DNA from: an uncultured Thermoplasmatales archaeon
GTDB taxonomy: Archaea; Thermoplasmatota; E2; UBA202; DSCA01
Assembly (NCBI GenBank): GCA_964514975.1
Contig: CAZESS010000023.1
Location: 1-27,253, forward strand
Reading direction: 5' to 3'
DNA length: 27,253 nucleotides
In this document: piece by piece, positions 2,832-27,005 of the stretch
How positions within the stretch are numbered: position 1 is the stretch's first letter
How the letters are laid out: each line of letters begins with the position of its first letter
Translations under genes and position numbers: made by a program
Notes under the pieces: model-generated
What the model was told of the DNA's origin: nothing
The model's database searches: none
Seen by the model: only the letters and a program-made list of their open reading frames with translations

Positions 2832-3773
2832 ATGCAGATACTTGTCACCGGCGGCGCCGGGTTCATCGGCAGCCATCTGATAGACACGCTGCTCGAGCAG
2901 GGCCACGATGTCGTCACCATCGACAATTTTTCGTCGGGGCGCCGGGAGTTCATCGAGCACAACCTGGAGAGGGGCCTGCGCCTCGTCGAGGGCGACATGC
3001 TCAACCCCAACCATGTCCGCAAGGCGGTCAAGGGCACCGACCTCGTCTACCATCTCGCGGCCAACCCGGATGTCAGACGTGGGGCAGAGGACACCTACGT
3101 CCACCTCGAGCAAAACATCCTCGCGACCTACCATCTCCTGGAGGAAATGCGGAAGCAGGGCATCGACCAGCTTGGCTTTACCTCCTCATCCACCGTCTAC
3201 GGCGAGGCGGACGAGATACCGACACCGGAGAGCTACGGCCCCCTCGTCCCCATCTCGCTCTATGGCGCTTCCAAGCTCGCCGCTGAGTCGCTCATCGACT
3301 CATACTGCTACACGTTCGACATGCAGGCCACGCTCTACCGTTTCGCCAACGTCGTCGGGCCGCGGAGCACCCACGGTGTCACCTATGACTTCATCCGGAA
3401 ACTGCAGCGCAATCCCGACGTGCTGGAAATCCTGGGGGACGGAAGCCAGAAAAAATCATATCTCTACATCGACGACTGCATCAAGGCGATGCTGCACGGC
3501 ATAGAACACGGCAGCGGCCGCGTGAACATTCTCAACATCGGCTCTGAGGACTGGATAGACGTCCGGGGCATCGCCGACATCGTCTCCGACGAAATGGGGC
3601 TCTCGCCCGACTACGAGTTCACCGGCGGCGTCGACGGCGGCCGGGGCTGGAAGGGCGACGTCAAGGTCATGCGGCTGGCCATCGACCGGCTCAAAAAATG
3701 GGGCTGGCAGCCGGAGCATGACAGCGCCGATGCGATCCGGATGACGGCCCGCTGGCTTATCGAGAACCTGTGA
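2832..3773 (+). CDS. NAD-dependent epimerase/dehydratase (UDP-glucose 4-epimerase-like extended SDR)
   Basis: TGGAGFIG Rossmann motif, HLAA, FTSSSTVYG, catalytic YGASK, RFANVVGP and GDGSQ. Confidence 0.92.
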   Translation: MQILVTGGAGFIGSHLIDTLLEQGHDVVTIDNFSSGRREFIEHNLERGLRLVEGDMLNPNHVRKAVKGTDLVYHLAANPDVRRGAEDTYVHLEQNILATYHLLEEMRKQGIDQLGFTSSSTVYGEADEIPTPESYGPLVPISLYGASKLAAESLIDSYCYTFDMQATLYRFANVVGPRSTHGVTYDFIRKLQRNPDVLEILGDGSQKKSYLYIDDCIKAMLHGIEHGSGRVNILNIGSEDWIDVRGIADIVSDEMGLSPDYEFTGGVDGGRGWKGDVKVMRLAIDRLKKWGWQPEHDSADAIRMTARWLIENL

Positions 3774-4353
3774 ACTGCTTCGCCACGAGATAGATTTCGG
3801 AGCTGCTTTTCCGTGACGCCTTCGGCGTGAACGGCTTGACCATGTTGAACACCTGGCGTACATCCTCGCGGAAGTCCTCGTAGTCCTCGCCCATGAACAC
3901 CTTGCAGACAAAGTTTCCATTGGGGCGGAGCATCTCCCGGGCGACCTTGAACGCGTTGGAGGCCAGCCAGACGCTCCGCGCCTGGTCCATCGTGTAGTTG
4001 CCCGTCAGGTCGGGTGACATGTCGGATATGACCACATCGGCCTCGTCGACGTGCCGTCTGAGCCGCTTGAGGGTTTCCTCCTCCGTCATGTCTCCCTGGA
4101 TGAAGGTCACGCCGTCTATGGGCTGCATCTGCTGCAGGTCGACCGCGATGACCCTGTCGGCGAGCTCGCCGGCGGCCTGGCTCCATCCACCCGGCGCGGC
4201 GCCAAGGTCGATGACCATGTCGCCCGGGGAGATAACCTGGTATTTTTTTTGTATCTGGAGGAGCTTGTAGGCCGAGCGGGCGCGGTAGCCCTGCCGCTTT
4301 GCTTTTTTGTAGTAGTGCTCGTTTTTGCGCTCGCGGTACCAGCGGGTGGGCAT
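3757..4353 (-). CDS. rlmE: 23S rRNA Um2552 2'-O-methyltransferase RlmE (FtsJ/RrmJ)
   Basis: YRARSAYKL, DLGAAPGGWSQ, VISDMSP, FVCKVF and ASRKSSSEIY supply the K-D-K-E tetrad. Confidence 0.96.
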   Translation of the reverse strand: MPTRWYRERKNEHYYKKAKRQGYRARSAYKLLQIQKKYQVISPGDMVIDLGAAPGGWSQAAGELADRVIAVDLQQMQPIDGVTFIQGDMTEEETLKRLRRHVDEADVVISDMSPDLTGNYTMDQARSVWLASNAFKVAREMLRPNGNFVCKVFMGEDYEDFREDVRQVFNMVKPFTPKASRKSSSEIYLVAKQFTGSR

Positions 4354-5288
4354 TAGAGGACGATGTCCAGGTCGAGCTTTTCAGCCAGTTCCTTGTAGCG
4401 GTTTCGGATAGTGACCTCGGTGACCCCCGCTACATCTGCAACCTCGCGCTGGGTTTTCCGCTCGCCGCACAAAATGGATGCGATGTATATCGCCGCGGCT
4501 GATACACCGGTGGGGCCGCGCCCGGAGGTGAGCTCCTTGTTTTCGGCCTGCTGGAGGATTTCCATGGCCTTGGTCTTGATGTCCTCGCTCAGCGAGAGCT
4601 TGCTGCAGAACCTTGCCGTGTAGTCCTGCGGCGACGTCGGCATGAGCTTGAGCTTGAGCTCGCGGGCGATGAAGCGGTAGGTGCGGCCGATTTCCTTGCG
4701 GTCGACCCTGGATGAGCCGGCGATCTCGTCGAGCGTTCGGGGGACGCCGCACTGGCGACAGGCCGCATAGATCGCCGCAGCCGTCACACCTTCGATGGAG
4801 CGACCCCGGATCAGGTTTTTCTCGACCGCGCGCCGGTAGACCATCGCCGCTGCTTCTCTCACGTTGCGGGAGAGACCCATGTCGGATGAGATGCGGTCGA
4901 GCTCTGACAGTGCCGAGGCAAGGTTGCGCTCGGATGCGCTGCCAACCCGGATGCGGCGCTGCCATTTGCGCAGCCGGTAGAGCTGGGCGCGGTTGCGGGT
5001 GGGGATTGATTTGCCGTAGCTGTCCTTGTTTTTCCAGCCGATCATGGTGGAGAGGCCCTTGTCGTGGACCGCGTAGTTCATGGGTGCGCCGGTTCGCGCT
5101 CGCTTTTCGCGCTGTTCGGGGTCGAAGGCGCGCCATTCGGGTCCCGGGTCGATGTAGGAGTCATCGATAACGAGTCCGCAGTCCTTGCAGACAAGTTCTC
5201 CTCTCCGGTAGTCCTGCACCAGCCGTGTTGAGTCGCATTCCGGGCATTGTTCTATCTCGTCTATCTCGACTTTTTTATTACGTGACAT
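4353..5288 (-). CDS. tfb: Transcription initiation factor IIB (TFB)
   Basis: Zn ribbon CPEC...CKDC, B-reader GPEWRAF, two cyclin repeats, and [26 protein letters not shown]. Confidence 0.98.
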
Positions 5289-5333
5289 GGTATCCCCAAA
5301 GTTTTTAAACGTTTTGCCTCTCGAATAGCGAGG

Positions 5334-5351
5334 TTATATATAAGTATTTCG
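5334..5351 (-). promoter_or_regulatory. Putative BRE/TATA promoter of tfb-rlmE
   Basis: The minus strand reads CGAAATAC-TTATATATAA about 45 nt upstream of the tfb ATG. Confidence 0.6.
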
Positions 5352-5400
5352 TCGCCTATATTAAGGAGAAGGCCCAATATCATGCGCATTGATTACACGC

Positions 5401-5796
5401 CTATCGCCGGCGTTCGTCGAGATGGAACACGTATCGGGTCGGCACCCGCTGCCGCACCCCGCCCCTGTATGAGCAGGTCTCGCACGTGTAGCCCACGGTC
5501 ACCTCCTCGCCCCACAGCGACCGGTTTTTCACCCGGCTGAGGTCGCCGCCGCAGACGGGGCATGCCCGCGCTTTTTTTCCGCCCTCCCGGGAATGCACGT
5601 CGACGCGGGCGAAGTTCGCCCGGGCGGCCAGCATGCGAACGCGTTCCTCGCTGACCGTGTAGCCGTCATCCCACGCCCTGAGCTCCCGCAGCACCTCCTC
5701 CCGGAGCCTCCGCTGCGTGTCAACGGTTCCATGTTCCCGGAGGACCTTGTAAATCGCGACGACGACTTCCTCGCTACTCGGCAGGCGATAGGACAT
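5401..5796 (-). CDS. Hypothetical protein with a helical (possibly wHTH) N-terminus and a C-terminal Zn ribbon
   Basis: CPVCG...CETC pairs in a basic, Arg-rich protein. Start set at ATG 5796 (GGAG immediately upstream, TTTATA about 25 nt upstream). Confidence 0.7.
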   Translation of the reverse strand: MSYRLPSSEEVVVAIYKVLREHGTVDTQRRLREEVLRELRAWDDGYTVSEERVRMLAARANFARVDVHSREGGKKARACPVCGGDLSRVKNRSLWGEEVTVGYTCETCSYRGGVRQRVPTRYVFHLDERRR

Positions 5797-5946
5797 CTCC
5801 TTAAAAACGGCAACGGCCATATAAATGTTGACGGCACCTCGCCACGCTCACATCACCAGCGGCACAAAAAATTCGTCGGCGCATCCGGTGCGTCCTCACC
5901 CCTATCACTCCACGTCAAATCGACCATTTCATACACGCCCCTGCAG

Positions 5947-6996
5947 CTAGGAGGACTGCATCGCCATCGCACGCCCGATGATACGGTCGCAGATAGCCGT
6001 CAGCCAGCCAAGCGACCCGTCATCCCACATCGACACGGGCAGCCGCGGGGACACGTCCCGCAGCTCCTCTACCTCCCGGAGATGCCGGTACAGGGTGCTC
6101 CGGTTCAGGTCGTACAGCGCCGCGAAATCCTTTTTGGACAGCTCCACCTCGCTCCCCCGATGGCCGGTGGCGACAGCCCCACAGGCCAGGTAGAGCGCCG
6201 CGATGCCGAGCCCCTTGCGGCTGTGTTTCTGGCCGGCATATTGCCGCTCAATGGCCTCCATCACCGGGATGCAGACCGCGAACGTCTCCCGCAACACCTG
6301 CTCGCGGAACGCTGCATGGTCGAGGTCGTGCAGGCCGGCCCGCCGCCGGAGATCCCGGAGCCGCTCGTCGTCGAACACGTCCGGGAACCGCCGGTCAATT
6401 CCAACGACATCGGGCATGGCAACCTCCGTCATATCCGACATTTTTTTCGCCTCATCAAAAATCTTGGTCCAGCTGTCAAACACCAGCCGCCAGTTATCCC
6501 GGTCCCGGTAAAACAACCGCAAAAGGTCATCCTTCCGCTCCGCCATGAGACACAGCGCGGTAATCCCCTCCTTGTAGCGGCTGCGCAGCCGCTGAAGCAG
6601 CCCCTTCCGGTACAGCAGCGCCAGCTTCCCGAGCACCTTCTGCTCGATGCGTTCACCCTCCGTCTCCACCTCGCGCCACACCACGCCCTCCACATAGCGG
6701 ACCTTCCTGTTCAGCAGGATGTCGTCGCCCTCAACCAGGTCCATCGGCTCAGGGGACTGCAGCCGCATCGGCTGCTTCTGCACGCCCTCGGGAAGCCCGA
6801 GCAGCCGGAGCGTCCACCGGACGGTTTCCTCGACAACCTGCCGCATCGTAAAGGGGAGCTCTCCGTTGTCCTTGAAGCAGCGCCGGAAATGGTCGATGTG
6901 GCGGGCGACCTCGAACGATGGCTTCCCCCGGGATTCGAGCAACTCCCGCAGTACCTCCTCGTGTTGATAGATGCTGCCGCCGGCAGATCGTGGCAT
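5947..6996 (-). CDS. Hypothetical protein with a C-terminal TFB/cyclin-repeat-like HTH region
   Basis: 349-aa ORF with host-like codon usage. The C-terminal KGLGIAALYLAC...LSKKDFAALYDLNRSTLYRHLREV resembles the TFB repeats. TTTTATG about 30 nt upstream of ATG 6996. Confidence 0.65.
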   Translation of the reverse strand: MPRSAGGSIYQHEEVLRELLESRGKPSFEVARHIDHFRRCFKDNGELPFTMRQVVEETVRWTLRLLGLPEGVQKQPMRLQSPEPMDLVEGDDILLNRKVRYVEGVVWREVETEGERIEQKVLGKLALLYRKGLLQRLRSRYKEGITALCLMAERKDDLLRLFYRDRDNWRLVFDSWTKIFDEAKKMSDMTEVAMPDVVGIDRRFPDVFDDERLRDLRRRAGLHDLDHAAFREQVLRETFAVCIPVMEAIERQYAGQKHSRKGLGIAALYLACGAVATGHRGSEVELSKKDFAALYDLNRSTLYRHLREVEELRDVSPRLPVSMWDDGSLGWLTAICDRIIGRAMAMQSS

Positions 6997-7130: not shown

Positions 7131-8387
7131 TTATATCCTGAGCACGAAGGCCTGTATCTCCCGCTCGGCGGTGTTCCCGGCGTTGTTGTAGGCGACGATG
7201 CGGAGGGTTTTTCTGAAAAACGCCCGGTCGTCCCACAGCCAGGTGTAGGGCGCCTGGGCGCTCGTGTTCTGCAGCTCGCCGTCGACGTAGAACTCCACCT
7301 GGTCCATGCCCGAGACGTTATCCGTCGCGTTCACCTCGACCTGGATGTCCCCTATGATGGCGGTGGTGCCGGACACCGTGCTGATGGTATCCCGCCCCCA
7401 CATATAGAGACGACCCTCCACGGGCCTGAAAACGGTGAGCGATGGCTTGCGCTTGTCGATGTTCACGGCCACCGATTGCTCGGCCTCCTCATTTCCGGCG
7501 TTGTCAACCGCGTAAAAGGAAACATTGTGTTCGCCGTTTTCGGTCAGCGTGAACGGATCGGTGTAGGTGTTCCATGTCCCGTTGTCGACCCGGTAGCTGA
7601 TTCCGGATACGCCCGAGGTGGCATCGGTCGCGTTCAGGGTGACGGTCACGTTGCTGCCATACCAGTCCCCGTTTTCCTCGCCGTCAAGGTCAACCGTGGT
7701 GGAAGGCGGGGTGTTATCAACGATGAAGGTGGAGCTGGAGACGTCCTGCGCCGTGTTCCCCGCATCGTCAACCGCTGTTACGCTCGCCTGGTAGCCGGCC
7801 CCGTCTGCAACGCCGGTCGTATCCCAGGAGATCTGGTCGGTATGGGCATCCGGGATGGAATCGATGGTCTGCCATGCTCCGTTGTTCCGGTAGCTCGCCT
7901 CGATGTCCGGGTAGTCGTCGCCGTTGTCGCTCACGCTCCATTCGACGTCGACGGTCCCCGAAAGGTACTCGCCGCCGTCCGGGTACAGGAGGCTCACATG
8001 GGGTGCCGTCCCGTCGACGAACAGACTGTACTCCTGTGTTTGACCGCTGTTGCCCACGGTGTCCTCGGCCTCGATGTGAAACGTCAGCATCCCCTCGTCG
8101 AAGGGACCGATGGTGGCCGCATAGCTGCCCGACGAGCCGGACATTGATGCCGGCGGGTAACAGCTCCCGTCATAGCAGTAGATAAGGTTTACCTCGGCGA
8201 CCCCGCTGTCGTCGGTGACAGTCGCCGAGACGGTGATGGTGTCGCTTTCATCCGGATGCTCGGGCTGCCAGTCCACGTTGCTGATAGACGGCGGCTCGGT
8301 GTCATCCATGCCGTGCGTAGCGAGCGGAAATGCAGCTAGGCAGATGACGGCAATGGCCACACCTGCGGCCAGCTTTTTCTTGAACAT
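7131..8387 (-). CDS. Secreted multi-Ig-like-domain surface protein
   Basis: Signal peptide MFKKKLAAGVAIAVICLAAFPLA. Four beta-sandwich units opened by DTEPP, DGTAP, DNTPP and DKRKP and closed by [AV]x[DN]xxGN. No recognisable catalytic domain. Confidence 0.85.
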   Translation of the reverse strand: MFKKKLAAGVAIAVICLAAFPLATHGMDDTEPPSISNVDWQPEHPDESDTITVSATVTDDSGVAEVNLIYCYDGSCYPPASMSGSSGSYAATIGPFDEGMLTFHIEAEDTVGNSGQTQEYSLFVDGTAPHVSLLYPDGGEYLSGTVDVEWSVSDNGDDYPDIEASYRNNGAWQTIDSIPDAHTDQISWDTTGVADGAGYQASVTAVDDAGNTAQDVSSSTFIVDNTPPSTTVDLDGEENGDWYGSNVTVTLNATDATSGVSGISYRVDNGTWNTYTDPFTLTENGEHNVSFYAVDNAGNEEAEQSVAVNIDKRKPSLTVFRPVEGRLYMWGRDTISTVSGTTAIIGDIQVEVNATDNVSGMDQVEFYVDGELQNTSAQAPYTWLWDDRAFFRKTLRIVAYNNAGNTAEREIQAFVLRI

Positions 8388-8469
8388 ACATCCGTAATAT
8401 ACACCACTTATTAAGTTTAACCATCGTTAAAGTTATTAACGTATGCGGGATACATTGTTCGGTGAACAC

Positions 8470-10377
8470 ATGAACAAAACTGTTGTCTCTGTTCTGGCAT
8501 TAATACTGCTGGTTTTTTCAACCGCTCTGTTTTTTTCAACGGATGCTGACAGTGCTGGCGAAGAAGCCACTAAAGAAACGAGGTCTACCCATACGGTGAT
8601 GGTGGAGGTGGGAACGGCGACATGGTGCCCCAGCTGTCCTGCTGCCAACACGGCATGGCACAACATCTACAGCGGTGGCAGCTATGATTTCGAATACTGC
8701 GAAATGGTGACGGACATGAACTCCGTGGCCGATGCACGCATGGACGAGTACAACATATACTGGGTTCCCACGTCGTACTATGACGGAGGATATGACGTCG
8801 TCACCGGTAGCTCCGGATTGGAATCCGGCCTTTCCGCCGCCGAGCAGCGGACCGTCTACGACATCGACGCCGCCATCACAAGCTGCACATGGCTGGGTAA
8901 CGCATCCATCGGCATCGACGTCAGCGTGACAAACAACGAAGCCACGACCTACCACGGGTCGATAAAGGTCTACACCATTGAACTGGTGTCTTCCATGTGG
9001 AATGATTACAATGGGAACCCCTACTACCATGCCTTCCTTGACTTCCCCATAGAGCAAACCGTGTCTATCCCCCCGGGGGACACATATGCCACCGACACCG
9101 TCTGGGACGGGGCCGCAGCGGGCTACCCAGGGATAACCATCGATAACACGCAGGTCACCCTCGCCGTGTTCAACGACACCGTCCACACCGGCTATTCGGA
9201 CCCACCGAGTGGCGCACCATTCAACGCATACTACGTTGACGAGACAACAGCGGCAATGCCCGGCAACGTATCCGACAGCACCCCGCCGAACATCGGCCTC
9301 ATCACGGCGACGCCGCCCCAGCAGGACATGTACGGACATGTGAACCTTACCGTGAACGTCACCGACAACGCCGGCGTCGACGTGGTGAAAGCAATCATCA
9401 ATTACCCGGATGGCTCGTCGGTGAACGAGACCATGACGCAGGTCGCCGGAACCGACACCTACTCCTACAACACGACCTACGACCTGCCGGGCAGCTACCT
9501 GGTCCAGATATGGACGCAAGACGTCAACGGCAACACCAACACATCCTGCTGCCCATTCTATTTCACCATCACCGACATCATCCTCCCGCAAATCCCGGAT
9601 GTGACCGCGACCCCAGCATCGCAGTATGCAGGCGAACACGTGAACATCACCGCGCAGGCCACCGACAACGTCGGCATATCGACGGTAGCCGTCAACGTCA
9701 CCGCTCCCGGCGGCAGCCATACCAACGCCACCATGACACGGATAAGCGGCACCGACACCTACTACTACAACGCCACCTATTTCGCCCCCGGGGCGTATAG
9801 TTTCACGGTCTGGTGCGACGACTGGGAGGGCAACAGCAACATGTCAGGCCCCAACAGCTTCACTATCATGGACGCCACGGTGGACCTGTCCTTTTCCACG
9901 GGCTGGAACCTGATGACGGTGCCCGTCGCCAATGGTTACAACGCGAGCTCGCTTGGCGCGGCAATCCCGGGCTGTAACATTGTGGCCTACTGGAACGCCT
10001 CCGCTGGGATGTTCCAGTCCTATGTGGTTGGCATAACACCGGGCTCGGGCTTCGCTATCGAGGACGGCGTCGGCTACTTCGTATATGTGAACACGTCCGA
10101 TACGTTTTCGGTGACCGGCGCGCCACTGTCAAGCGTTGCGGTTGACCTGTTTACGGGATGGAACACGATCGGCTGGTATGACGCCAACGTGACGAGTGCG
10201 AGCTCGCTCGCCCCGTCGGTGCCCTATTGCAGCATCGCGGCCTACTGGAACGCGTCGAGCGGCACGTTTGAGTCGTACACGGTCGGAGTGACGCCGCCAC
10301 CCGGGTTTACCATTACCAGGGGTATGGGCGTGTTCGTCTATGTCACCACATCGGGCACCTGGAACGGGCAGGGCTGA
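8470..10377 (+). CDS. Secreted protein with a thioredoxin-like CxxC (Omp28-like) domain, two Ig-like repeats and two C-terminal GWN repeats
   Basis: GGTGA Shine-Dalgarno before ATG 8470 and a signal peptide. VEVGTATWCPSCP motif. Duplicated (H)VN[LI]T..TDNxG...GTDTY.YN.TY units and duplicated TGWN...AYWNAS.G.F.SY.VG...G.G.FVYV units. Many NxS/T sequons. Confidence 0.82.
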   Translation: MNKTVVSVLALILLVFSTALFFSTDADSAGEEATKETRSTHTVMVEVGTATWCPSCPAANTAWHNIYSGGSYDFEYCEMVTDMNSVADARMDEYNIYWVPTSYYDGGYDVVTGSSGLESGLSAAEQRTVYDIDAAITSCTWLGNASIGIDVSVTNNEATTYHGSIKVYTIELVSSMWNDYNGNPYYHAFLDFPIEQTVSIPPGDTYATDTVWDGAAAGYPGITIDNTQVTLAVFNDTVHTGYSDPPSGAPFNAYYVDETTAAMPGNVSDSTPPNIGLITATPPQQDMYGHVNLTVNVTDNAGVDVVKAIINYPDGSSVNETMTQVAGTDTYSYNTTYDLPGSYLVQIWTQDVNGNTNTSCCPFYFTITDIILPQIPDVTATPASQYAGEHVNITAQATDNVGISTVAVNVTAPGGSHTNATMTRISGTDTYYYNATYFAPGAYSFTVWCDDWEGNSNMSGPNSFTIMDATVDLSFSTGWNLMTVPVANGYNASSLGAAIPGCNIVAYWNASAGMFQSYVVGITPGSGFAIEDGVGYFVYVNTSDTFSVTGAPLSSVAVDLFTGWNTIGWYDANVTSASSLAPSVPYCSIAAYWNASSGTFESYTVGVTPPPGFTITRGMGVFVYVTTSGTWNGQG

Positions 10378-16755: not shown

Positions 16756-16796
16756 TTTTAAAAATCGGCTGACGATGTATGCATGGGAGGTATTAC

Positions 16797-18152
16797 ATGA
16801 CGCAATCCGGATATCGGGCTGTGGCGGCGGGGATAGTGATGCTTTTTTTCGGCATGACGCTTGTTCCATCCGTGGGGCCAATCGCTGTGCATCATGCTGA
16901 AACGGACACATCTTCAGTGATGCAGACAGCAACGGATGAGCTGCCGCCGCCCCGGGATGTCGACATGTCGCTCGAGGAGGCCATCTGCCGGCGGATGTCC
17001 GTCCGGGAGTTCACCGATGAAGCCGTCGATGAGCAGGCGCTGTCGACGGTGCTCTGGCATGCCGGTGGCCGCCGCGATGACGGCCGGACGTTTCCCGCGT
17101 TCGGCGAATATCATGCATGTGAGCTCTATGTGCTCCTCGAGGACGCAGCCTACAGGTACAACGCCACGGGTCATTCGCTCACGCTGTACAAGGAGGGCGA
17201 CTACCGGGGCAGCGTGGGCTGGCAGTACGAGGCACCCGTGGTGCTGTGCCTGGTCTGGAACATGACCGCCGCGGGTGAGCACATCGCATCCGCGCAGGTC
17301 GGCGCCGTCTTCCAGAACGTCGCCTGGACGGCCGCCGCTCTCGGCCTTGGCACCGTGGTCACCGGCGAGTACCCGTCGCCCATCAACACCGTGCTCGGCG
17401 TCCCGGAAACGGAGGACGGCATGATCATCATGCCGCTCGGCCATCCCGTCCATGACTATGACTTCCGCCATCGGCCCTGGTGGCTGTCGCTGCAGCCCCG
17501 CCCCGCGATTGGCGACCTCTCTCTGACCACGGCGATACGGATGCGGGAGGAAACATCGACGCTGTCCGGAGCCCTCACCATGGAGCAGCAGAGCCAGCTC
17601 GCCTGGTCGTCATATGGCATGTCGCTCTACCTCGACCGCAGCCAGCAGGAAAAAAACTCGGTCGCCAGGCATCGTACCGTGCCCAGCGCGCATGGTTACT
17701 ATCCCTTCGAGATATATGTCGCCACGGCAGACGGCATCTACCGCTATTATCCCAACCTGCTCACCGAGCTCAACTGGTATCTCCGGTTTGCGCCCGTCGA
17801 CTTTTTCGGTCTCCCCGTCCTGACGGGCATGCGGCAGATGGCCGAGGGTGACCATCGCGGGGGCATCGCCGGGGCATCCCATGAGGCGGTGGCATCGGCG
17901 CCATTGAGCGTTATCGCCGTGCTCACCGTGGACCGCACCCGGCCGGAATGGTACGACGACCTGTCCGGCGGCTTCATCCGCTACATCTGGCACATGGAGG
18001 CCGGCGCCGCCATGTACAACGTTTTGCTGGAGGCAACGGCCATGGAGCTTTCATCGAACGTGTATGCCGTTGACGACGACACAGCGGTCATGGCTGCCAT
18101 CGGCCTGTCCGGGGACTACGACCCGATGTACATTGCGGCCGTGGGAGAATAA
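16797..18152 (+). CDS. Exported tandem SagB/ThcOx-like nitroreductase-family protein, paralogue of 291..1826
   Basis: GGAGG Shine-Dalgarno and signal peptide (YRAVAAGIVMLFFGMTLVP). LEEAICRRMSVREF, QNVAWTAAALGLGTV, RHRTVPSAHGYYP and HMEAGAAMYNVLLEATA. Confidence 0.8.
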   Translation: MTQSGYRAVAAGIVMLFFGMTLVPSVGPIAVHHAETDTSSVMQTATDELPPPRDVDMSLEEAICRRMSVREFTDEAVDEQALSTVLWHAGGRRDDGRTFPAFGEYHACELYVLLEDAAYRYNATGHSLTLYKEGDYRGSVGWQYEAPVVLCLVWNMTAAGEHIASAQVGAVFQNVAWTAAALGLGTVVTGEYPSPINTVLGVPETEDGMIIMPLGHPVHDYDFRHRPWWLSLQPRPAIGDLSLTTAIRMREETSTLSGALTMEQQSQLAWSSYGMSLYLDRSQQEKNSVARHRTVPSAHGYYPFEIYVATADGIYRYYPNLLTELNWYLRFAPVDFFGLPVLTGMRQMAEGDHRGGIAGASHEAVASAPLSVIAVLTVDRTRPEWYDDLSGGFIRYIWHMEAGAAMYNVLLEATAMELSSNVYAVDDDTAVMAAIGLSGDYDPMYIAAVGE

Positions 18153-20059: not shown

Positions 20060-21235
20060 CTACATCAGCACGTTGAACAGGTAGCCGAGGAGGAGCACCT
20101 GTGGCACCGTGATGACGGGGAGCCACAATGCCGCTTTTTTGCCGATGTTCTGCCAGATGAGCCCTATCTCCGTGTAGTCGGTGGCGACGCCGGCCATCAG
20201 GAAGGTGAAGCTGTTGCCGAAGGCGCCCGTCTGCCGGAATATTTCGAAGGCCAGCGGGGAGCTTCCCTCGGAGCAGACCTCGATGACGGTGGCGAAGAAC
20301 AGGGTGACGGCCAGGCCGAGCAGCGTGGGGCCCATGTAGTCGACGAACAAATCGTGGGGGATGTAGCCCCGGGCGAACGAGGCCATGAGCATGCCGACGA
20401 TGAGCCACCACATGACCATTTTGGTGAGCGACCAGGCTCCCTCCAGCGTTCCTCGCGCTGCATCGGCAACGTTTTCCCGGGTGAACTCGAATGTCTGCCA
20501 CCGCCGCCGGATGTCATCCAGCACGGAGAAATCGGTCAGCACAGGGGTGTCCTCGCCGTGTTCGCATTTCCCGCATTCCACCATGCCATGGCGTTCCAGT
20601 GCCTGGTAGGCCAGGCCGGTTGTGGTGGCGATGACCAGCGCCGAGATGATGATGAGCAGCGCGTTGAGGCCGAAGAAGCCGAACAGGAGCACGGTTATCG
20701 GCAGGTTTGCCCAGGGAGATGCGAGCAGAAACGCGATGACCGACGACGTGCTGGCGCCTTTTTTGTAGAGCTCGATGGAGATGGCCAGGATGCCGTGGGA
20801 GCAGGCGCTCATGAGAAAGCCGAAGAGGATTGCATAGCTGATGGTGCGTTTTTGGTGACGGGAGAGATATTTTTCGATGTAAGTGCGCGGCACAAAGCGG
20901 TCGATGACGCCGCCGATGAAAAAGCCGAGCAGGATGGCCCACCAGATGAGCTCCAGGTAGTCGATGAACGCCTCGTAGAAGGGACGGAGCGGCTCATAGA
21001 GGTATCCGGCCAGGAGCAATACCGCGGTTGCCGCGGTGACGATGAACAATCGCTGCCGGTACCATGGCGTGCCGCCCTCGATGGTGCAGCTCGGACAATA
21101 TGATTGCTCCTCGGGGATGCCATGTTGTTCCTCGTATTTGCGGATGCAGCGCTCGCAGCAGAAATAGTGGCCGTGGGCCGGGATGGTGCCCTGCATCCCG
21201 CAGATGGGATCTGTTGTATCCACTGAGTTATTCAC
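20060..21235 (-). CDS. ArsP/DUF318-type permease with an N-terminal YHS/TRASH metal-binding domain
   Basis: DPICGM...YFCCERC at the N-terminus. Transmembrane motifs SACSHG, AFLLASPWAN, EVCSEGSSP and FLMAGVAT. GTG start with TTTATAT upstream. Confidence 0.85.
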   Translation of the reverse strand: MNNSVDTTDPICGMQGTIPAHGHYFCCERCIRKYEEQHGIPEEQSYCPSCTIEGGTPWYRQRLFIVTAATAVLLLAGYLYEPLRPFYEAFIDYLELIWWAILLGFFIGGVIDRFVPRTYIEKYLSRHQKRTISYAILFGFLMSACSHGILAISIELYKKGASTSSVIAFLLASPWANLPITVLLFGFFGLNALLIIISALVIATTTGLAYQALERHGMVECGKCEHGEDTPVLTDFSVLDDIRRRWQTFEFTRENVADAARGTLEGAWSLTKMVMWWLIVGMLMASFARGYIPHDLFVDYMGPTLLGLAVTLFFATVIEVCSEGSSPLAFEIFRQTGAFGNSFTFLMAGVATDYTEIGLIWQNIGKKAALWLPVITVPQVLLLGYLFNVLM

Positions 21236-21311
21236 AATAGTTAACCGCCTGGCGATATAAAAGATGTTTGGCTGGCCGGCGGGATTTTATACGTCTTTCC
21301 GTTCAAGACAC

Positions 21312-21785
21312 ATGGCCTTCCGCTATGACACGCTTGCCTCGCCGATTGGTACCATCTACATCATTTTCGACGAGATGGGCGTCCACCGCATCTGCCTGTC
21401 CGGCGACAGCTTCCGCCGGGACTTTGCGGGGCTGAAGCCCGCCGAGCAGCCCATCGCCCGCCGGCAGCTCCGCGAATATTTCCTTGGAGAGCGGCGCACG
21501 TTTGAGCTCCCATTGCTCGTCTACGGCACCGATTTCCAGAGCAGCGTCTGGCGCACGCTCCGCACCATTCCCTACGGGGAGACGCGCAGCTACGGCTGGG
21601 TCGCCGAGCAGATAGACAAGCCGGAGGCGGTCCGGGCCGTTGGCACCGCCGCCGGGGACAACCCCGTACCCATCGTGATACCATGCCACCGGGTCGTCAA
21701 AAGCAACGGCGACATCGGCGGCTACAGCGCCGGCGTGGAAAAAAAGCGCTGGCTGCTTGAACACGAGCGAGGAAAACATCTATAA
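21312..21785 (+). CDS. ogt: Methylated-DNA-[protein]-cysteine S-methyltransferase
   Basis: SPIG, GTDFQ..VW..L..IPYGETRSY, AVRAVG, NPVPIVIPCHRVV and KRWLLEHE. TTTTATA about 27 nt upstream of the ATG. Confidence 0.96.
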   Translation: MAFRYDTLASPIGTIYIIFDEMGVHRICLSGDSFRRDFAGLKPAEQPIARRQLREYFLGERRTFELPLLVYGTDFQSSVWRTLRTIPYGETRSYGWVAEQIDKPEAVRAVGTAAGDNPVPIVIPCHRVVKSNGDIGGYSAGVEKKRWLLEHERGKHL

Positions 21786-21807
21786 GCCCTGCCATCGTTA
21801 TGATGCG

Positions 21808-24561
21808 ATGCTTGTCAACGTCTCCCCTGACTACCTGTACTGGACCGACCATGTTCAGCCCATCGAGGACCGGCATGCCCCCTATTTTATCGCGCTGCCG
21901 CCGTCCGGGATGGACGCGGGGGAGGCACGGAAAAAGGTCGCCGCCGAGCTCACCGGCGACGAGCGGGTGGAGCGCATCGGCGAGCTGGAAACCTATCAGT
22001 CGTTCTGGCATCCCGGGGTGCAGCGCCCCGCCTTCAAGGTCTATACGACCAGGAGCTATCATGTTCCATCGGTGAGCGACGACGTCTTCCGGCTGGGATT
22101 GTTCAGCGCCGAGCACGACATCCCCTACCACGAGCGGGCGTTGACCGACCTGGCAGCCGAGGGAACCTGGGTGTTCGACAGCCAGGGCGAGGAGCAGACG
22201 CTGACGGTGACCGCCTACGACATCGAGATGACCGAGTACGGGGACAAAAAACATGTGCCCATCGACATCATCGGCTACCGGCAGTTCGACGTCTCCTTCA
22301 TCTCGGAGGAAGACCTGGACAGCGAGGATTTCATGTTCCAGTTCACCTCGTTCCCCGAGCAGCTCGATGGCGAGGTCGAGCAGCTCGTTGCGCATGACGA
22401 GGCCGAAGAGGTCGAACAGTTGTTGCGGATATGCGACGTGCTCCAAAACACGGACATCGTCACCGGGCACAACATCATCGGGTTCGACAACCTGCAGATA
22501 TACGAGCGCATCATGCATCTTTTGCAGCACTGCTCGACGATTTCCGGCGACGAGGCAAAGCGCTTCCGTTCCTATCTGGAAGGCTATGCACGGCAGGACC
22601 GCTCCTTCCATTTCGGGTCGCCGCAGCAGACCGCGATTTTTTACCCGGCGAGCTTCGACACCTACCAGGCAGCCCGGAAGTTTTACTCGCTGGACAGCTA
22701 CACGCTGGGCAGCGTCGCCTCGTTCCTCGGCGTGGACATCGCCGACCGGGTGGAGCTCTCCCCCGACGAGATGGCCCTTGACGAGCGGACCATGCGCTAC
22801 AACCGCCAGGACGTCATGGAGCAGGCGGCCATCACGCTGTATCTGCTGCAGCAGGCGCTCCCCCTCTCGTTTACCACGGGGATGCCCTTCGAGCTATTGC
22901 TGTCCTCCGGCGCGACCAAGATGTGGGACTACATGGCGATGATCAGGGCCGCGCGGCACAAAAAGCTGATGCCCGCTATCTGCCGGGCGCAGAGCGTCGC
23001 CGCCGGCATCCGGGATCTGGGGGGCAGCAAGGAGGAAATCGCCGCCGGCGCACGGGACAGCGAGCCGTCGAAGCAGGTGATGCGCGTCGCCAAGTACGGC
23101 GAGGAGATGCCCGACTGGGTTGAATACCCGTTTCTGCTGTATGACCCGGAGAGCGAGGATACGGGCTACCATTTCCCGGGCGGGATGACCATCAAGCCGA
23201 ACCGCGACGCTGACTCCGACTACGTGCCATGGTACCATGTCGTGGTTGCCGATGTCGGCGCGATGTATCCGACCATCCTGAAGGCGGTGAACGCCGGCGC
23301 TGACACCGTCCGCCTCGCCCGCGAAAACGAGACACCGGATGACTGGGTGTGGCTGAAGGAGCTGCCGGAGGCCTTCCACGACCTCGGGTTTGCCATCCGG
23401 CCGGCCGAGGAGGAGTACACCGACAAGGGCTGCATGGTCGGCGTGCACATCGACGAGCAGCCCGGCCTGGTCAACCTGGCGATGACCGGCATCCTGAACT
23501 TCATCGGCAAAATCAAGCGGGACATGCAGCGGGCGTCGGGGGAAGAGCAGCGCCGCCTGAAGATGATGTATCAGTCGCTGAAGGGCGCCCGGAACGCCGG
23601 CACCCATGGCATCCTGTCGGCGCCGCGTGTCAGCTGCCGCCAGTTCAATTTATGGGGCGCGGCTTTGATTACGACGATGGGCCAGTACATTCTGAACGAC
23701 ACGCTCAACATTCTCAACGACCGCGGCGCCAGGGTCGTCTACGGGGACACCGACGGCATCTACATCGGCTGCTCCCGCTCGATGTCGCAGGAGCTCGCAG
23801 CTGCGCTCGATGTTCCAGCTCCGGAGGAAAACTGGATCATTCCGCCATCCGAAGCATTAAACGCGATACGCTTCTGCAACCGGAAGTGGCGCGACGAGCT
23901 TAAGTATGAGGAGTTCGAGCTGGAGCCCGAGGAGCATGAGGCCATGATTTTCGTCAAGCACAAAAACTATCTCATCTTCGACGTCCAGGACGGCACGCTC
24001 CGCCTGACCACCAAGGGGAACAACTTCAAGGGCAGCGACAAGCCCAACATCGCCCGCATCGTCCTGGCGGACATCATGGCCGACGTGCTGCGGGAAAACA
24101 CGAGCTGGACGAGCGAGGAGGAGGCGCGGCGGAACATCAAGACGTCGCTGAAAAAGCAGACCCATGAGCACGTGGAGGCGCTGGACATCGAAAGCTTCGA
24201 CCTCGACGCCTTCACCCTGGTGCAGTCGGTGCAGCCGCCAGGCCGGTACAAGCCCAACCCGGATGGATCGATGTCCGTCTACGGGGAGCGCGCGAAGGCG
24301 CTGCAGCGCCTGATCGGCTCCATCTCCGCCCGCCAGAAGTTCAAGTTCGTGGTCACCAAGAAATCGCTGCCGGGCGTCAAAAACCCGACCAAGAGCTCGG
24401 TGAAGCCCATCCATTACATGTACCCGTTGAAGCTGCTGGACAGCCGCCGGCAGATAGACATGGACTGGTACACCGACATGATCAAGAGCTACGTCCGCGG
24501 CGCCTTCGGCCTCCGCGATCTCGACCTCAAGGAACAATATGGCCTGGACGCCTGGATGTAG
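21808..24561 (+). CDS. polB: Family B DNA polymerase (divergent) with a 3'-5' exonuclease domain and a C-terminal PIP box
   Basis: ExoI AYDIE, ExoII GHNIIGFD, ExoIII YNRQD, FPGG, region II DVGAMYP, region III QSLKGARNAGTHG, region I YGDTDG, KHKNY and C-terminal QYGLDAWM. Start inferred at ATG 21808 (917 aa). Confidence 0.9.
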   Translation: MLVNVSPDYLYWTDHVQPIEDRHAPYFIALPPSGMDAGEARKKVAAELTGDERVERIGELETYQSFWHPGVQRPAFKVYTTRSYHVPSVSDDVFRLGLFSAEHDIPYHERALTDLAAEGTWVFDSQGEEQTLTVTAYDIEMTEYGDKKHVPIDIIGYRQFDVSFISEEDLDSEDFMFQFTSFPEQLDGEVEQLVAHDEAEEVEQLLRICDVLQNTDIVTGHNIIGFDNLQIYERIMHLLQHCSTISGDEAKRFRSYLEGYARQDRSFHFGSPQQTAIFYPASFDTYQAARKFYSLDSYTLGSVASFLGVDIADRVELSPDEMALDERTMRYNRQDVMEQAAITLYLLQQALPLSFTTGMPFELLLSSGATKMWDYMAMIRAARHKKLMPAICRAQSVAAGIRDLGGSKEEIAAGARDSEPSKQVMRVAKYGEEMPDWVEYPFLLYDPESEDTGYHFPGGMTIKPNRDADSDYVPWYHVVVADVGAMYPTILKAVNAGADTVRLARENETPDDWVWLKELPEAFHDLGFAIRPAEEEYTDKGCMVGVHIDEQPGLVNLAMTGILNFIGKIKRDMQRASGEEQRRLKMMYQSLKGARNAGTHGILSAPRVSCRQFNLWGAALITTMGQYILNDTLNILNDRGARVVYGDTDGIYIGCSRSMSQELAAALDVPAPEENWIIPPSEALNAIRFCNRKWRDELKYEEFELEPEEHEAMIFVKHKNYLIFDVQDGTLRLTTKGNNFKGSDKPNIARIVLADIMADVLRENTSWTSEEEARRNIKTSLKKQTHEHVEALDIESFDLDAFTLVQSVQPPGRYKPNPDGSMSVYGERAKALQRLIGSISARQKFKFVVTKKSLPGVKNPTKSSVKPIHYMYPLKLLDSRRQIDMDWYTDMIKSYVRGAFGLRDLDLKEQYGLDAWM

Positions 24562-24805
24562 ACCGCGGGCAGCCCGACCACAAGGAGGAAAACCCTCCGC
24601 CATGTAGACCACCCGTTGTTTAGACATTTCTAACCACACTGGAAGCCAGATGAGCGCGGGACGGCTGGATGCCATTGCCGGGCGGTATGGCCACCGGTTC
24701 ATCTCTCCCAATGTGCCAGACGATGTTCCCGTTGCGAACACTGTTTTCCGTCCGCTGCATCCCTCGGCGGGGAATGACATATAAACTCAGTGATATTTTC
24801 CCGGC

Positions 24806-26293: not shown

Positions 26294-26471
26294 ATACGAG
26301 TATCCGCCCCTGCGTTTAAAACCTTGTTTTTTCTGTGTATGCCAGCGTTGATCTCTGAACGGGGCCACATCCCTATATGGTTGCCCGGAATGAAATGTCC
26401 CCTATTTTCTTGACCTCTATTTGTCTAAATTAAATCATAATATATAAAAATATTATTTACATTATACATTT

Positions 26472-27005
26472 ATGTCTCAACCGACACCCACTGGACTTAC
26501 CCTTACAGAAGGTGAGCAAGTCATATGGTATGGAAGAAGAAGCTGGAAAAGCTTATGGGGCTGGTTTGTAGCCTTTATCTTCACGATATGGTTTTATGGG
26601 TTAGGTATAATTTTTCTGTTGGCTGCAATTATCATAAGATATTCAAGCGAATATGCAATTACAAACAAACGAGCTTACTCAAGATACGGATTAATTTCCA
26701 GAAAAACAAATGATGCCTCTTTTGAACAAATAACAGATACCTCATTTTCTCAAGGCATTATAGGAAGGATATTAAATTTTGGCGATGTAGGCGTAAATAC
26801 GGCTGGCTCTGCGGGTTTTGAAATAACATATAAAGGAGTGAGCAACCCGAAGCCTTTACTTAGCAAAATTCAAAACGCGAAGAAAAGGAAAGCCCAATAC
26901 ACCAGAAAGGAAGAACGCATTGAACGTCTTCGAGACAGATACTACACAGGAGAGATTTCTAAGGAGAAGTTTGAAGAGGCTATCCGAAAAATTAATGAAG
27001 AATAG
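26472..27005 (+). CDS. Membrane-flanked bacterial PH-domain (bPH_2-like) protein with a SHOCT-like C-terminus; AT-rich
   Basis: Two TM helices, then Y.ITNKR....GLISR......I......QG..GRILNFGDV...TAG, then C-terminal L......GEISKEKFE. About 35% GC in the lines I counted. Confidence 0.8.
   Translation: MSQPTPTGLTLTEGEQVIWYGRRSWKSLWGWFVAFIFTIWFYGLGIIFLLAAIIIRYSSEYAITNKRAYSRYGLISRKTNDASFEQITDTSFSQGIIGRILNFGDVGVNTAGSAGFEITYKGVSNPKPLLSKIQNAKKRKAQYTRKEERIERLRDRYYTGEISKEKFEEAIRKINEE

Follow-up and report, generated by a model that had tools for sequence, protein, structure and literature searches.

The archaeal family-B DNA polymerase (PolB) groups B4-B10 were defined by Kazlauskas et al. (2020, Nucleic Acids Research 48:10142; PMC7544198), who placed group B8 in an EpsilonN-like clade that takes in PolEpsilonN, G3, B9 and B10, found it in all 'DHVEG-1' metagenome-assembled genomes (MAGs), and reported that Thermoplasma acidophilum carries B4 and no B8. 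The consulted sections of that paper give for B8 only the clade placement and the T. acidophilum absence, and mention neither an oddity in motif B nor a function; according to the legend of its Figure 4, motif logos are given per group. Here we describe a complete B8 gene on a 27,253-nucleotide (nt) stretch of DNA from an uncultured Thermoplasmatales archaeon (contig CAZESS010000023.1), hereafter called the window. As far as annotation is concerned, the gene is an ordinary one: the lineage uses it as its standard PolB, and the group was published in 2020.

Group B8 membership and distribution

The polymerase open reading frame is free of internal stops and encodes 917 amino acids (aa) followed by a stop codon (the coordinates of all features are collected in Table 1). 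The whole open frame spans 21757-24561 on the forward strand and includes an alternative, longer TTG start at 21757; the ATG at 21808 is backed as the start by the N-termini of 23 homologues, which align there. The protein matched the Pfam models DNA_pol_B (PF00136; 1.3e-13, 51 bits against a cut-off of 23) and DNA_pol_B_exo1 (PF03104; 5.2e-9, 36.3 bits against a cut-off of 23), none of the NCBIfam polymerase models came near its cut-off (top score 36.7 bits), and the top single-sequence match in the PDB was Sulfolobus Dpo1, at E 2e-4. A word-indexed protein search returned 512 matches at E <= 0.001. Motif counts were taken from the best 120 of these 512, none of which falls below 51% identity and most of which are full length; the named entries among them are Thermoplasmata, Thermoplasmatota or Euryarchaeota MAGs. 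Conservation was read from two alignments: A1, with 24 sequences (the 917-aa protein and the 23 homologues), and A2, with 36 sequences and reaching down to 29% identity.

To place the protein among described groups, we used a scan of one genome per species, which gave 179 relatives from 211 pattern matches; locus counts refer to the 80 loci kept. Five of these 80 coincide by contig and coordinates with B8 rows of the supplement to PMC7544198 (listed in Table 1), and these five are 51-60% identical to the 917-aa protein over residues 1-917 or 2-917. The coordinate overlap and the full-length identity together show B8 membership directly: the polymerase belongs to group B8, catalogued in 2020, and is not a new clade.

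The initial annotation had proposed a distinct PolB clade, and the distinctness holds. In a quick IQ-TREE phylogeny of 41 rows, which is small and unrooted and in which rows other than B8 and B2 are labelled from motifs and NCBIfam scores, 13 diverse B8 rows formed one clade (SH-like approximate likelihood ratio test, SH-aLRT, 100; stem 1.06), apart from the B3-like (four rows), B2, Pol II-like and eukaryote-like rows. NCBIfam scans did not cleanly separate the PolB groups. What does not hold is the suggestion that the clade had gone unrecognised, since it is the B8 of 2020. The annotation had also allowed for grouping within a characterised clade; B8 was indeed already catalogued, but no biochemical study of any B8 enzyme was found in the literature searched, and neither were papers besides Kazlauskas et al. 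that mention B8 together with PolB, subscription-only papers lying outside the coverage of these searches.

In the same quick tree, the B8 clade adjoins three long-branched orphans (P0198, P0202 and P0240; SH-aLRT 96). These are PolBs of ~680-760 aa, one of them (P0198) named as a Bathyarchaeota hypothetical protein, that carry a B8-type Exo II (GHN....DN) and read RNAIYG, RNAAFG or RNNLTHG at motif B. One possibility is that they are intermediates, another that they form a sister group of B8.

B8 genes were detected in 106 of 401 genomes of the phylum. Within the source organism's class the count is 103 of 105 genomes, mostly in single copy; both genomes of family f18 also have the gene, and it was found in none of the 293 genomes searched from other families of the phylum. 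Nearly all of the 80 kept loci come from records titled as MAGs of Thermoplasmatota, Thermoplasmata or Thermoplasmatales, the few exceptions being titled Methanobacteriota, Halobacteria, Euryarchaeota or just 'archaeon', and the genes flanking B8 loci are ordinary chromosomal ones, ribosomal L10/L12 among them. We read B8 as the chromosomal PolB of one Thermoplasmatota class, passed on by vertical inheritance.

We then considered the other DNA polymerases of the source genome, which is 1.96 Mb long. PolD, one of two companions raised in the initial annotation, is there, with both DP2 and DP1, and so is a single PCNA; the other, a second, canonical PolB, was not found in this 98.9%-complete genome, in which PF00136 and PF03104 match only the gene described here, even at E <= 10. 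A PolB2 was not found in the source genome with a PolB2 from another genome of the set (G078) as query, and a Y-family polymerase was not found there either. Across the class, PolB2 is a separate gene of ~745 aa that the same query detected in 50 of 111 genomes, but in only 2 of the 35 genomes of the source organism's order; a second PolB of ~745 aa in SM1-50 is listed as B2 in PMC7544198.

Catalytic residues and motif B

The initial annotation had read a family-B polymerase with the motifs NAGTHG, DVGAMYP, FPGG, GNNFKGSD and QYGLDAWM, and every one of them lies where it had been placed. The exonuclease motifs, with YDIE at residues 137-140 and GHNIIGFDN at residues 220-228, are essentially invariant among the best 120 homologues. 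In the polymerase domain, YHFPGG occupies residues 454-459 and KGNNFKGSDK residues 736-745, while DVGAMYP and YGDTDG are each present in 120/120 of the best homologues. Such recurrence of the motifs greatly exceeds what chance would give. The family-B catalytic set is kept in full (D138/E140, D227, Y331/D335, D482/Y487 and D647/D649), and the conservation of the carboxylates and the steric-gate Tyr in both alignments bears out the earlier view that, because all catalytic residues are conserved, this is not an inactivated protein of the PolB2 type. Judged by these residues, the protein very probably works as a family-B polymerase and proofreads with a functional 3'-5' exonuclease.

Motif B (region III) is where the protein departs from the canonical pattern. 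Residues 588-601 read YQSLKGARNAGTHG, in which the canonical KxxxNSxYG does not occur: KGARNAGTHG keeps the Lys and the Asn, replaces Ser by Ala and has one extra residue. Among the best 120 homologues, 109 read RNAGTHG and 11 read RNAG(A/S)HG, and A597, G598 and T599 are each at least 90% conserved in A2. When 1.84 billion cluster representatives were scanned exhaustively with HMMER, 132 matched at E <= 0.001, 54 of them at E <= 1e-30. The full-length members retain K-x-x-R-N-[AS]-G-T-H-G down to 32% identity; a gap opens at ~E 1e-55, and the next matches, at E 1e-11 to 1e-4, are ordinary PolBs with a canonical NSxYG. The conservation of the motif and the gap to canonical PolBs together mark RN(A/S)GTHG as the hallmark of an isolated family. 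The motif noted in the initial annotation is therefore family-wide, down to 29% identity in A2, and, as read from these alignments, it is group B8's fixed version of motif B and no recent rewrite in this organism.

How the motif relates residue by residue to NSxYG depends on the alignment. MAFFT aligned N-A-[G inserted]-T-H-G with N-S-x-Y-G and set the His at the Tyr position, as the initial annotation had done, and the orphan relatives with RNAIYG or RNAAFG at motif B agree with that reading. By contrast, the HMMER profile alignment to Pfu PolB placed G598 opposite the Gly of NSFYG, giving a two-residue deletion that removes the Tyr. The earlier description thus survives as one of two competing alignments, of which the one with a single inserted residue and His for Tyr appears, on the sequences compared, the more parsimonious. 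In an AlphaFold2 (AF2) model, the fingers helix runs through residues 578-597, breaks at G598-T599 and is followed by a short helix at 600-603.

Relatives of the gene carry inteins at two of these motifs. At motif B the intein lies between G598 and T599 (RNAG|S...HN|THG), and at motif C between D647 and T648 (YGD|S...HN|TDG). Inteins tend toward functionally critical sites, and we counted their presence at motifs B and C of relatives in favour of catalytic activity. Many intein-bearing B8 genes are found in other families of the class, including loci L094 and L095 (genomes G084 and G110) and the proteins P0122, P0131-P0133, P0135, P0145, P0149, P0151, P0159 and P0161; some genes have both inteins, resulting in open frames of up to 1857 aa, and the polymerase in the window has none.

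Fold, flanking elements and genomic context

The AF2 model, built on the 36-row alignment, has a mean predicted local distance difference test score (pLDDT) of 91.3 and a predicted TM-score (pTM) of 0.84. Its first 50 Foldseek matches in the PDB are all archaeal B3 polymerases, the best being those of KOD, 9N, Tgo and Pab, at a target-normalised TM-score of about 0.73 and ~17% identity. VIA-align, an independent comparison against representative structures, gave the highest Z to P. abyssi PolB (25.0), followed by Sso Dpo1 (21.9), P. calidifontis PolB3 (20.4), Pol delta (19.8), E. coli Pol II (19.7), Pol epsilon (18.1) and RB69 (15.8). When the family profile was compared with PDB sequences, Pfu PolB came first (2e-21), largely via the N-terminal domain, and Pol epsilon was outside the best 60 of 91 matches. 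The nearest solved relatives of the protein are accordingly B3 and B1 polymerases and not Pol epsilon, a structural likeness that neither contradicts nor corroborates the published EpsilonN-like placement of B8.

An archaeal-style N-terminal domain had been recognised in the initial annotation from PYF (residues 25-27) and AEHDIPYHERALTD (residues 101-114), both of which are present. The uracil-pocket residues of the Pfu enzyme are Y7, P36/Y37, 90-97 including V93, 111-116, R119 and D123 (PMC2241895). In the profile alignment to Pfu (3a2f_A), P36/Y37 and V93/P94 pair with P25/Y26 and V86/P87 of the 917-aa protein, and E111-F116, R119 and D123 pair with E102-Y107, R110 and D114; the paired residues are all invariant or at least 90% conserved in A1 and A2. 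From this correspondence we predict that the pocket probably recognises uracil or hypoxanthine in the template before the active site is reached.

Between the exonuclease and the palm, B8 proteins have an insertion of their own (~residues 385-450) without counterpart in the aligned B3 chains. It was modelled as four short helices with pLDDT around 90, and K422, R426, K429, Y430, G431, E433, M434, P435 and W437 are invariant in A1.

The C-terminus ends in a sequence, QYGLDAWM, that matches the PCNA-interacting protein (PIP) box pattern Q-x-x-[LIM]-x-x-[FYW]-[FYWLM]. Q910, G912, L913, D914, W916 and M917 are invariant in A1, and Q-x-x-L-x-x-[WF]-[MLF] closes the protein in 120/120 of the best homologues, in keeping with the PIP-type tail initially proposed. 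In the AF2 model, residues 908-917 have pLDDT below 50, as expected for a flexible peptide. A predicted complex of residues 868-917 with the organism's own PCNA was rated as weak support for binding: the median score was 0.56 (0.66, 0.51 and 0.56), against 0.01 for the best control, the three runs shared at least 70% of contacts, and the partner pLDDT was at least 48. Of 157 solved complexes, 116 reach the pass mark, as do 2 of 215 mismatched pairs, with scores of 0.60 or below seen for only 18 of the 157 solved complexes and for both passing mismatches; the pass may also reflect likeness, because PolB-PCNA complexes have already been solved (e.g. 3a2f). The PIP-like box would probably tether the enzyme to PCNA.

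One B8 member, P0124 (1235 aa), has a very acidic C-terminal extension of ~290 aa that comes after the apparent usual position of the PIP-like box and ends in a zinc-ribbon-like CPNC...CPRC. Zn-binding C-terminal domains are reported only for groups B6 and B10 in the consulted sections of PMC7544198.

Table 1. Polymerase features and neighbouring gene in the window, and loci of other genomes listed as B8 in PMC7544198
Feature	Position	Strand	Basis or remark
Group-B8 family-B DNA polymerase gene, complete	21808..24561	+	Open reading frame, Pfam, homologue-supported ATG
N-terminal stretch with predicted uracil-pocket residues	21808..22182	+	Profile alignment to Pfu 3a2f_A
Exo I, D138-I-E140	22219..22227	+	Invariant in A1 (24); at least 90% in A2 (36)
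Exo II, H221-N-I-I-G-F-D227-N228	22468..22491	+	HNxxxxDN in 120/120 of best 120 homologues
Exo III, Y331-N-R-Q-D335	22798..22812	+	D335 invariant, Y331 at least 90% (36 sequences)
B8-specific insertion between exonuclease and palm, R-V-x-K-Y-G-E-E-M-P-D-W block	22960..23157	+	
Motif A, D482-V-G-A-M-Y487-P-T (482-489), catalytic Asp and steric-gate Tyr	23251..23274	+	D482, Y487, P488 invariant in 36
Motif B, Y588 to G601	23569..23610	+	K592, R595, N596, H600, G601 invariant in 36
Motif C, Y645-G-D647-T-D649-G650	23740..23757	+	D647, T648, D649, G650 invariant in 36
KxY-type motif, K717-H-K-N-Y721	23956..23970	+	H718, K719 invariant; N720, Y721 at least 90% (36 sequences)
Thumb motif, G737-N-N-F-K-G-S-D744, replacing B3 GLExxRRD	24016..24039	+	G737, K745 invariant (36 sequences)
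C-terminal PIP-like box, Q910-Y-G-L913-D-A-W916-M917	24535..24558	+	Directly before stop
O6-alkylguanine-DNA alkyltransferase (Ogt/MGMT) gene	21264..21785	+	Pfam DNA_binding_1 1.6e-35, Methyltransf_1N 1.1e-7
B8-listed locus L035, LSSI01000056.1 (SM1-50)	match 3535-6396		Listed 3534-6405
B8-listed locus L024, MTNE01000098.1			Overlaps listed B8 coordinates
B8-listed locus L042, MUGE01000120.1			Overlaps listed B8 coordinates
B8-listed locus L047, QMSS01000105.1			Overlaps listed B8 coordinates
B8-listed locus L077, QMST01000002.1			Overlaps listed B8 coordinates

Directly upstream of the polymerase gene, and in the same orientation, lies an ogt gene that ends 22 nt before the polB start and has a TATA-like 'gatataaaag' directly before its ATG; the two genes are probably co-transcribed. 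No RNA record was listed for positions 21200-24700. This pairing occurs in only 5 of the 80 kept loci, all of them closest relatives (L005, L006, L080, L029 and L008), and the other clade members have unrelated housekeeping neighbours, so we rejected ogt as a conserved operon partner for B8. The polymerase gene is otherwise flanked by genes for TFIIB, FtsJ, CDP-archaeol synthase, GcvT, phosphatidylserine decarboxylase and phosphopantothenate synthetase, and its guanine-plus-cytosine (GC) content is the same as that of its surroundings.

Elsewhere in the window, positions 26300-27000 have a GC content of 0.32-0.42, against ~0.61 elsewhere, and cover an open reading frame with a bacterial PH domain (bPH_2, 26472-27005) near the contig end; this low-GC stretch could be foreign DNA. 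Two unusually long nitroreductase-family proteins, both matching the domain in two stretches, are encoded at 291-1901 on the reverse strand (536 aa) and 16779-18152 on the forward strand (457 aa). A divergent pair of genes, at 7131-8387 (reverse) and 8443-10377 (forward), encodes large proteins with bacterial Ig-like domains (Big_7, Big_13 and a faint DUF4625) that are probably surface proteins. No tRNA genes were found in the 27,253-nt stretch.

Cellular role and comparison with known polymerases

Beyond the observed or computed identity, conservation, distribution, fold and gene content, we infer catalysis, PCNA binding, uracil sensing and a cellular role, and consider it likely that the 917-aa protein is an active, proofreading, PCNA-tethered housekeeping B8 PolB, vertically inherited and working beside PolD. 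Such an enzyme would take the job that PolB3 has in other PolD-bearing archaea: the C-terminal PIP-like box would tether it to PCNA, it would synthesise DNA accurately and with proofreading, on the lagging strand or during gap filling and repair, and its N-terminal pocket would detect template uracil or hypoxanthine before the active site. We favour a housekeeping role because the proofreading domain is intact and the gene is near-universal, mostly single-copy and the sole PolB found. Several points weigh against this assignment. The adjacent MGMT gene might point to a bias towards repair; the handling of deoxynucleoside triphosphates may differ from that of B3, given the lack of the canonical motif-B Tyr and the modelled break of the fingers helix at G598-T599; B8 belongs to the EpsilonN-like clade of the published tree and does not group with B1-3 there (PMC7544198), so that the analogy with B3 rests on architecture and gene content and not on close kinship; the literature searched holds no bench data on any B8 enzyme; and the retained pocket residues do not prove sensing, because Pol epsilon retains parts of the uracil pocket without sensing uracil (PMC2241895).

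Some of these points would suit a specialised polymerase, in which the inserted Gly and the His for Tyr reshape the nascent base-pair pocket and confer fidelity, bypass or nucleotide selectivity unlike B3. The entire family has H600 and G598 as fixed residues, the fingers helix is interrupted at 598-599 in the model, the alternative HMMER alignment deletes the Tyr altogether, an alkyltransferase gene lies just upstream, and with no PolB2 or Y-family polymerase found in the genome, damage tolerance would be left to PolD or B8. However, the proofreading exonuclease is intact and conserved, unlike that of PolB2, the MGMT linkage is confined to 5/80 loci, and a near-universal gene that is often the sole PolB (B2 being present in 2/35 genomes of the order) fits a general-purpose enzyme; we therefore consider specialisation unlikely. 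As the sole PolB found, conserved class-wide and equipped with a PIP-like tail, the B8 enzyme might instead be the main leading-strand replicase, with PolD displaced from that role, but this seems to us very unlikely: both PolD subunits are present and intact in the source genome, and PolD is the main replicase in archaea except Crenarchaeota and Marsarchaeota (PMC7544198). The very low PolB model scores (51 bits for Pfam, 36.7 bits for the best NCBIfam model) and the inteins in relatives are what might be expected of a catalytically dead or structural PolB homologue, or of an import from a virus or mobile element. We find this scarcely credible, as the catalytic carboxylates are all conserved, the flanks are housekeeping genes, the GC content equals that of the surroundings, inheritance is vertical at class level, and none of the 24 viral stretches that matched the peptide pattern was confirmed as a relative by tblastn.

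B8 makes up a whole polymerase group of wide occurrence, on which no bench work was found in the literature searched; it is often the sole PolB beside PolD, and it has a strictly fixed departure from the highly conserved Tyr of motif B at the nascent base pair. Characterisation of a B8 enzyme would show how far this Tyr can be dispensed with, might provide a polymerase whose substrate tolerance is of use, and would supply a missing piece of archaeal replication outside model groups. A bolder proposal, which we offer tentatively and think rather doubtful, is that B8 enzymes are the first natural proofreading housekeeping PolBs whose base-pair pocket lacks the motif-B Tyr (with a Gly break and a His) and that they have altered nucleotide or template tolerance. 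If true, that tolerance might extend to modified bases, ribonucleotides, and alkylated and deaminated templates, and B8 would be the only polymerase besides PolD able to take on damage tolerance where PolB2 and Y-family polymerases were not found.

Set beside PolB3, the B8 protein shares the uracil-pocket residues, an exonuclease that is active as far as its motifs predict, the DTDG of motif C, a C-terminal Q-x-G-L-x-x-W tail and coexistence with PolD. B3 genes have inteins at the motif B and C sites, as B8 relatives have. Unlike PolB3, to which it is only ~17% identical, the protein has ~140 extra residues including the 385-450 insertion, reads RNAGTHG and not ANSxYG at motif B, DVGAMYP and not DFRSLYP at motif A, and GNNFKGSD and not GLExxRRD in the thumb, and groups apart from B3-like rows in the quick tree. 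The DV-x-x-MYP of motif A resembles the Pol epsilon motif. The N-terminal catalytic half of Pol epsilon belongs to the same EpsilonN-like clade as B8 according to PMC7544198, but it resembles the B8 model less closely in structure than B3 does (Z 18.1 and 25.0, respectively), and B8 is without the motif-C Glu that the same paper names as a synapomorphy of PolEpsilonN, B10 and G3. PolB2, the Dpo2-type translesion polymerase, is, like B8, a divergent PolB, and both occur together in 50 of the 111 class genomes; PolB2 lacks the conserved Exo I, Exo III and first motif-C Asp (PMC7544198), all of which B8 keeps. Within group B8 itself, the 917-aa protein is of the same gene family, comes from the same Thermoplasmata/Thermoplasmatota MAG hosts ('DHVEG-1'), and fits the group's length of ~950 aa; the only differences found are that it is a new species-level member and is ~40 aa shorter than the SM1-50 type.

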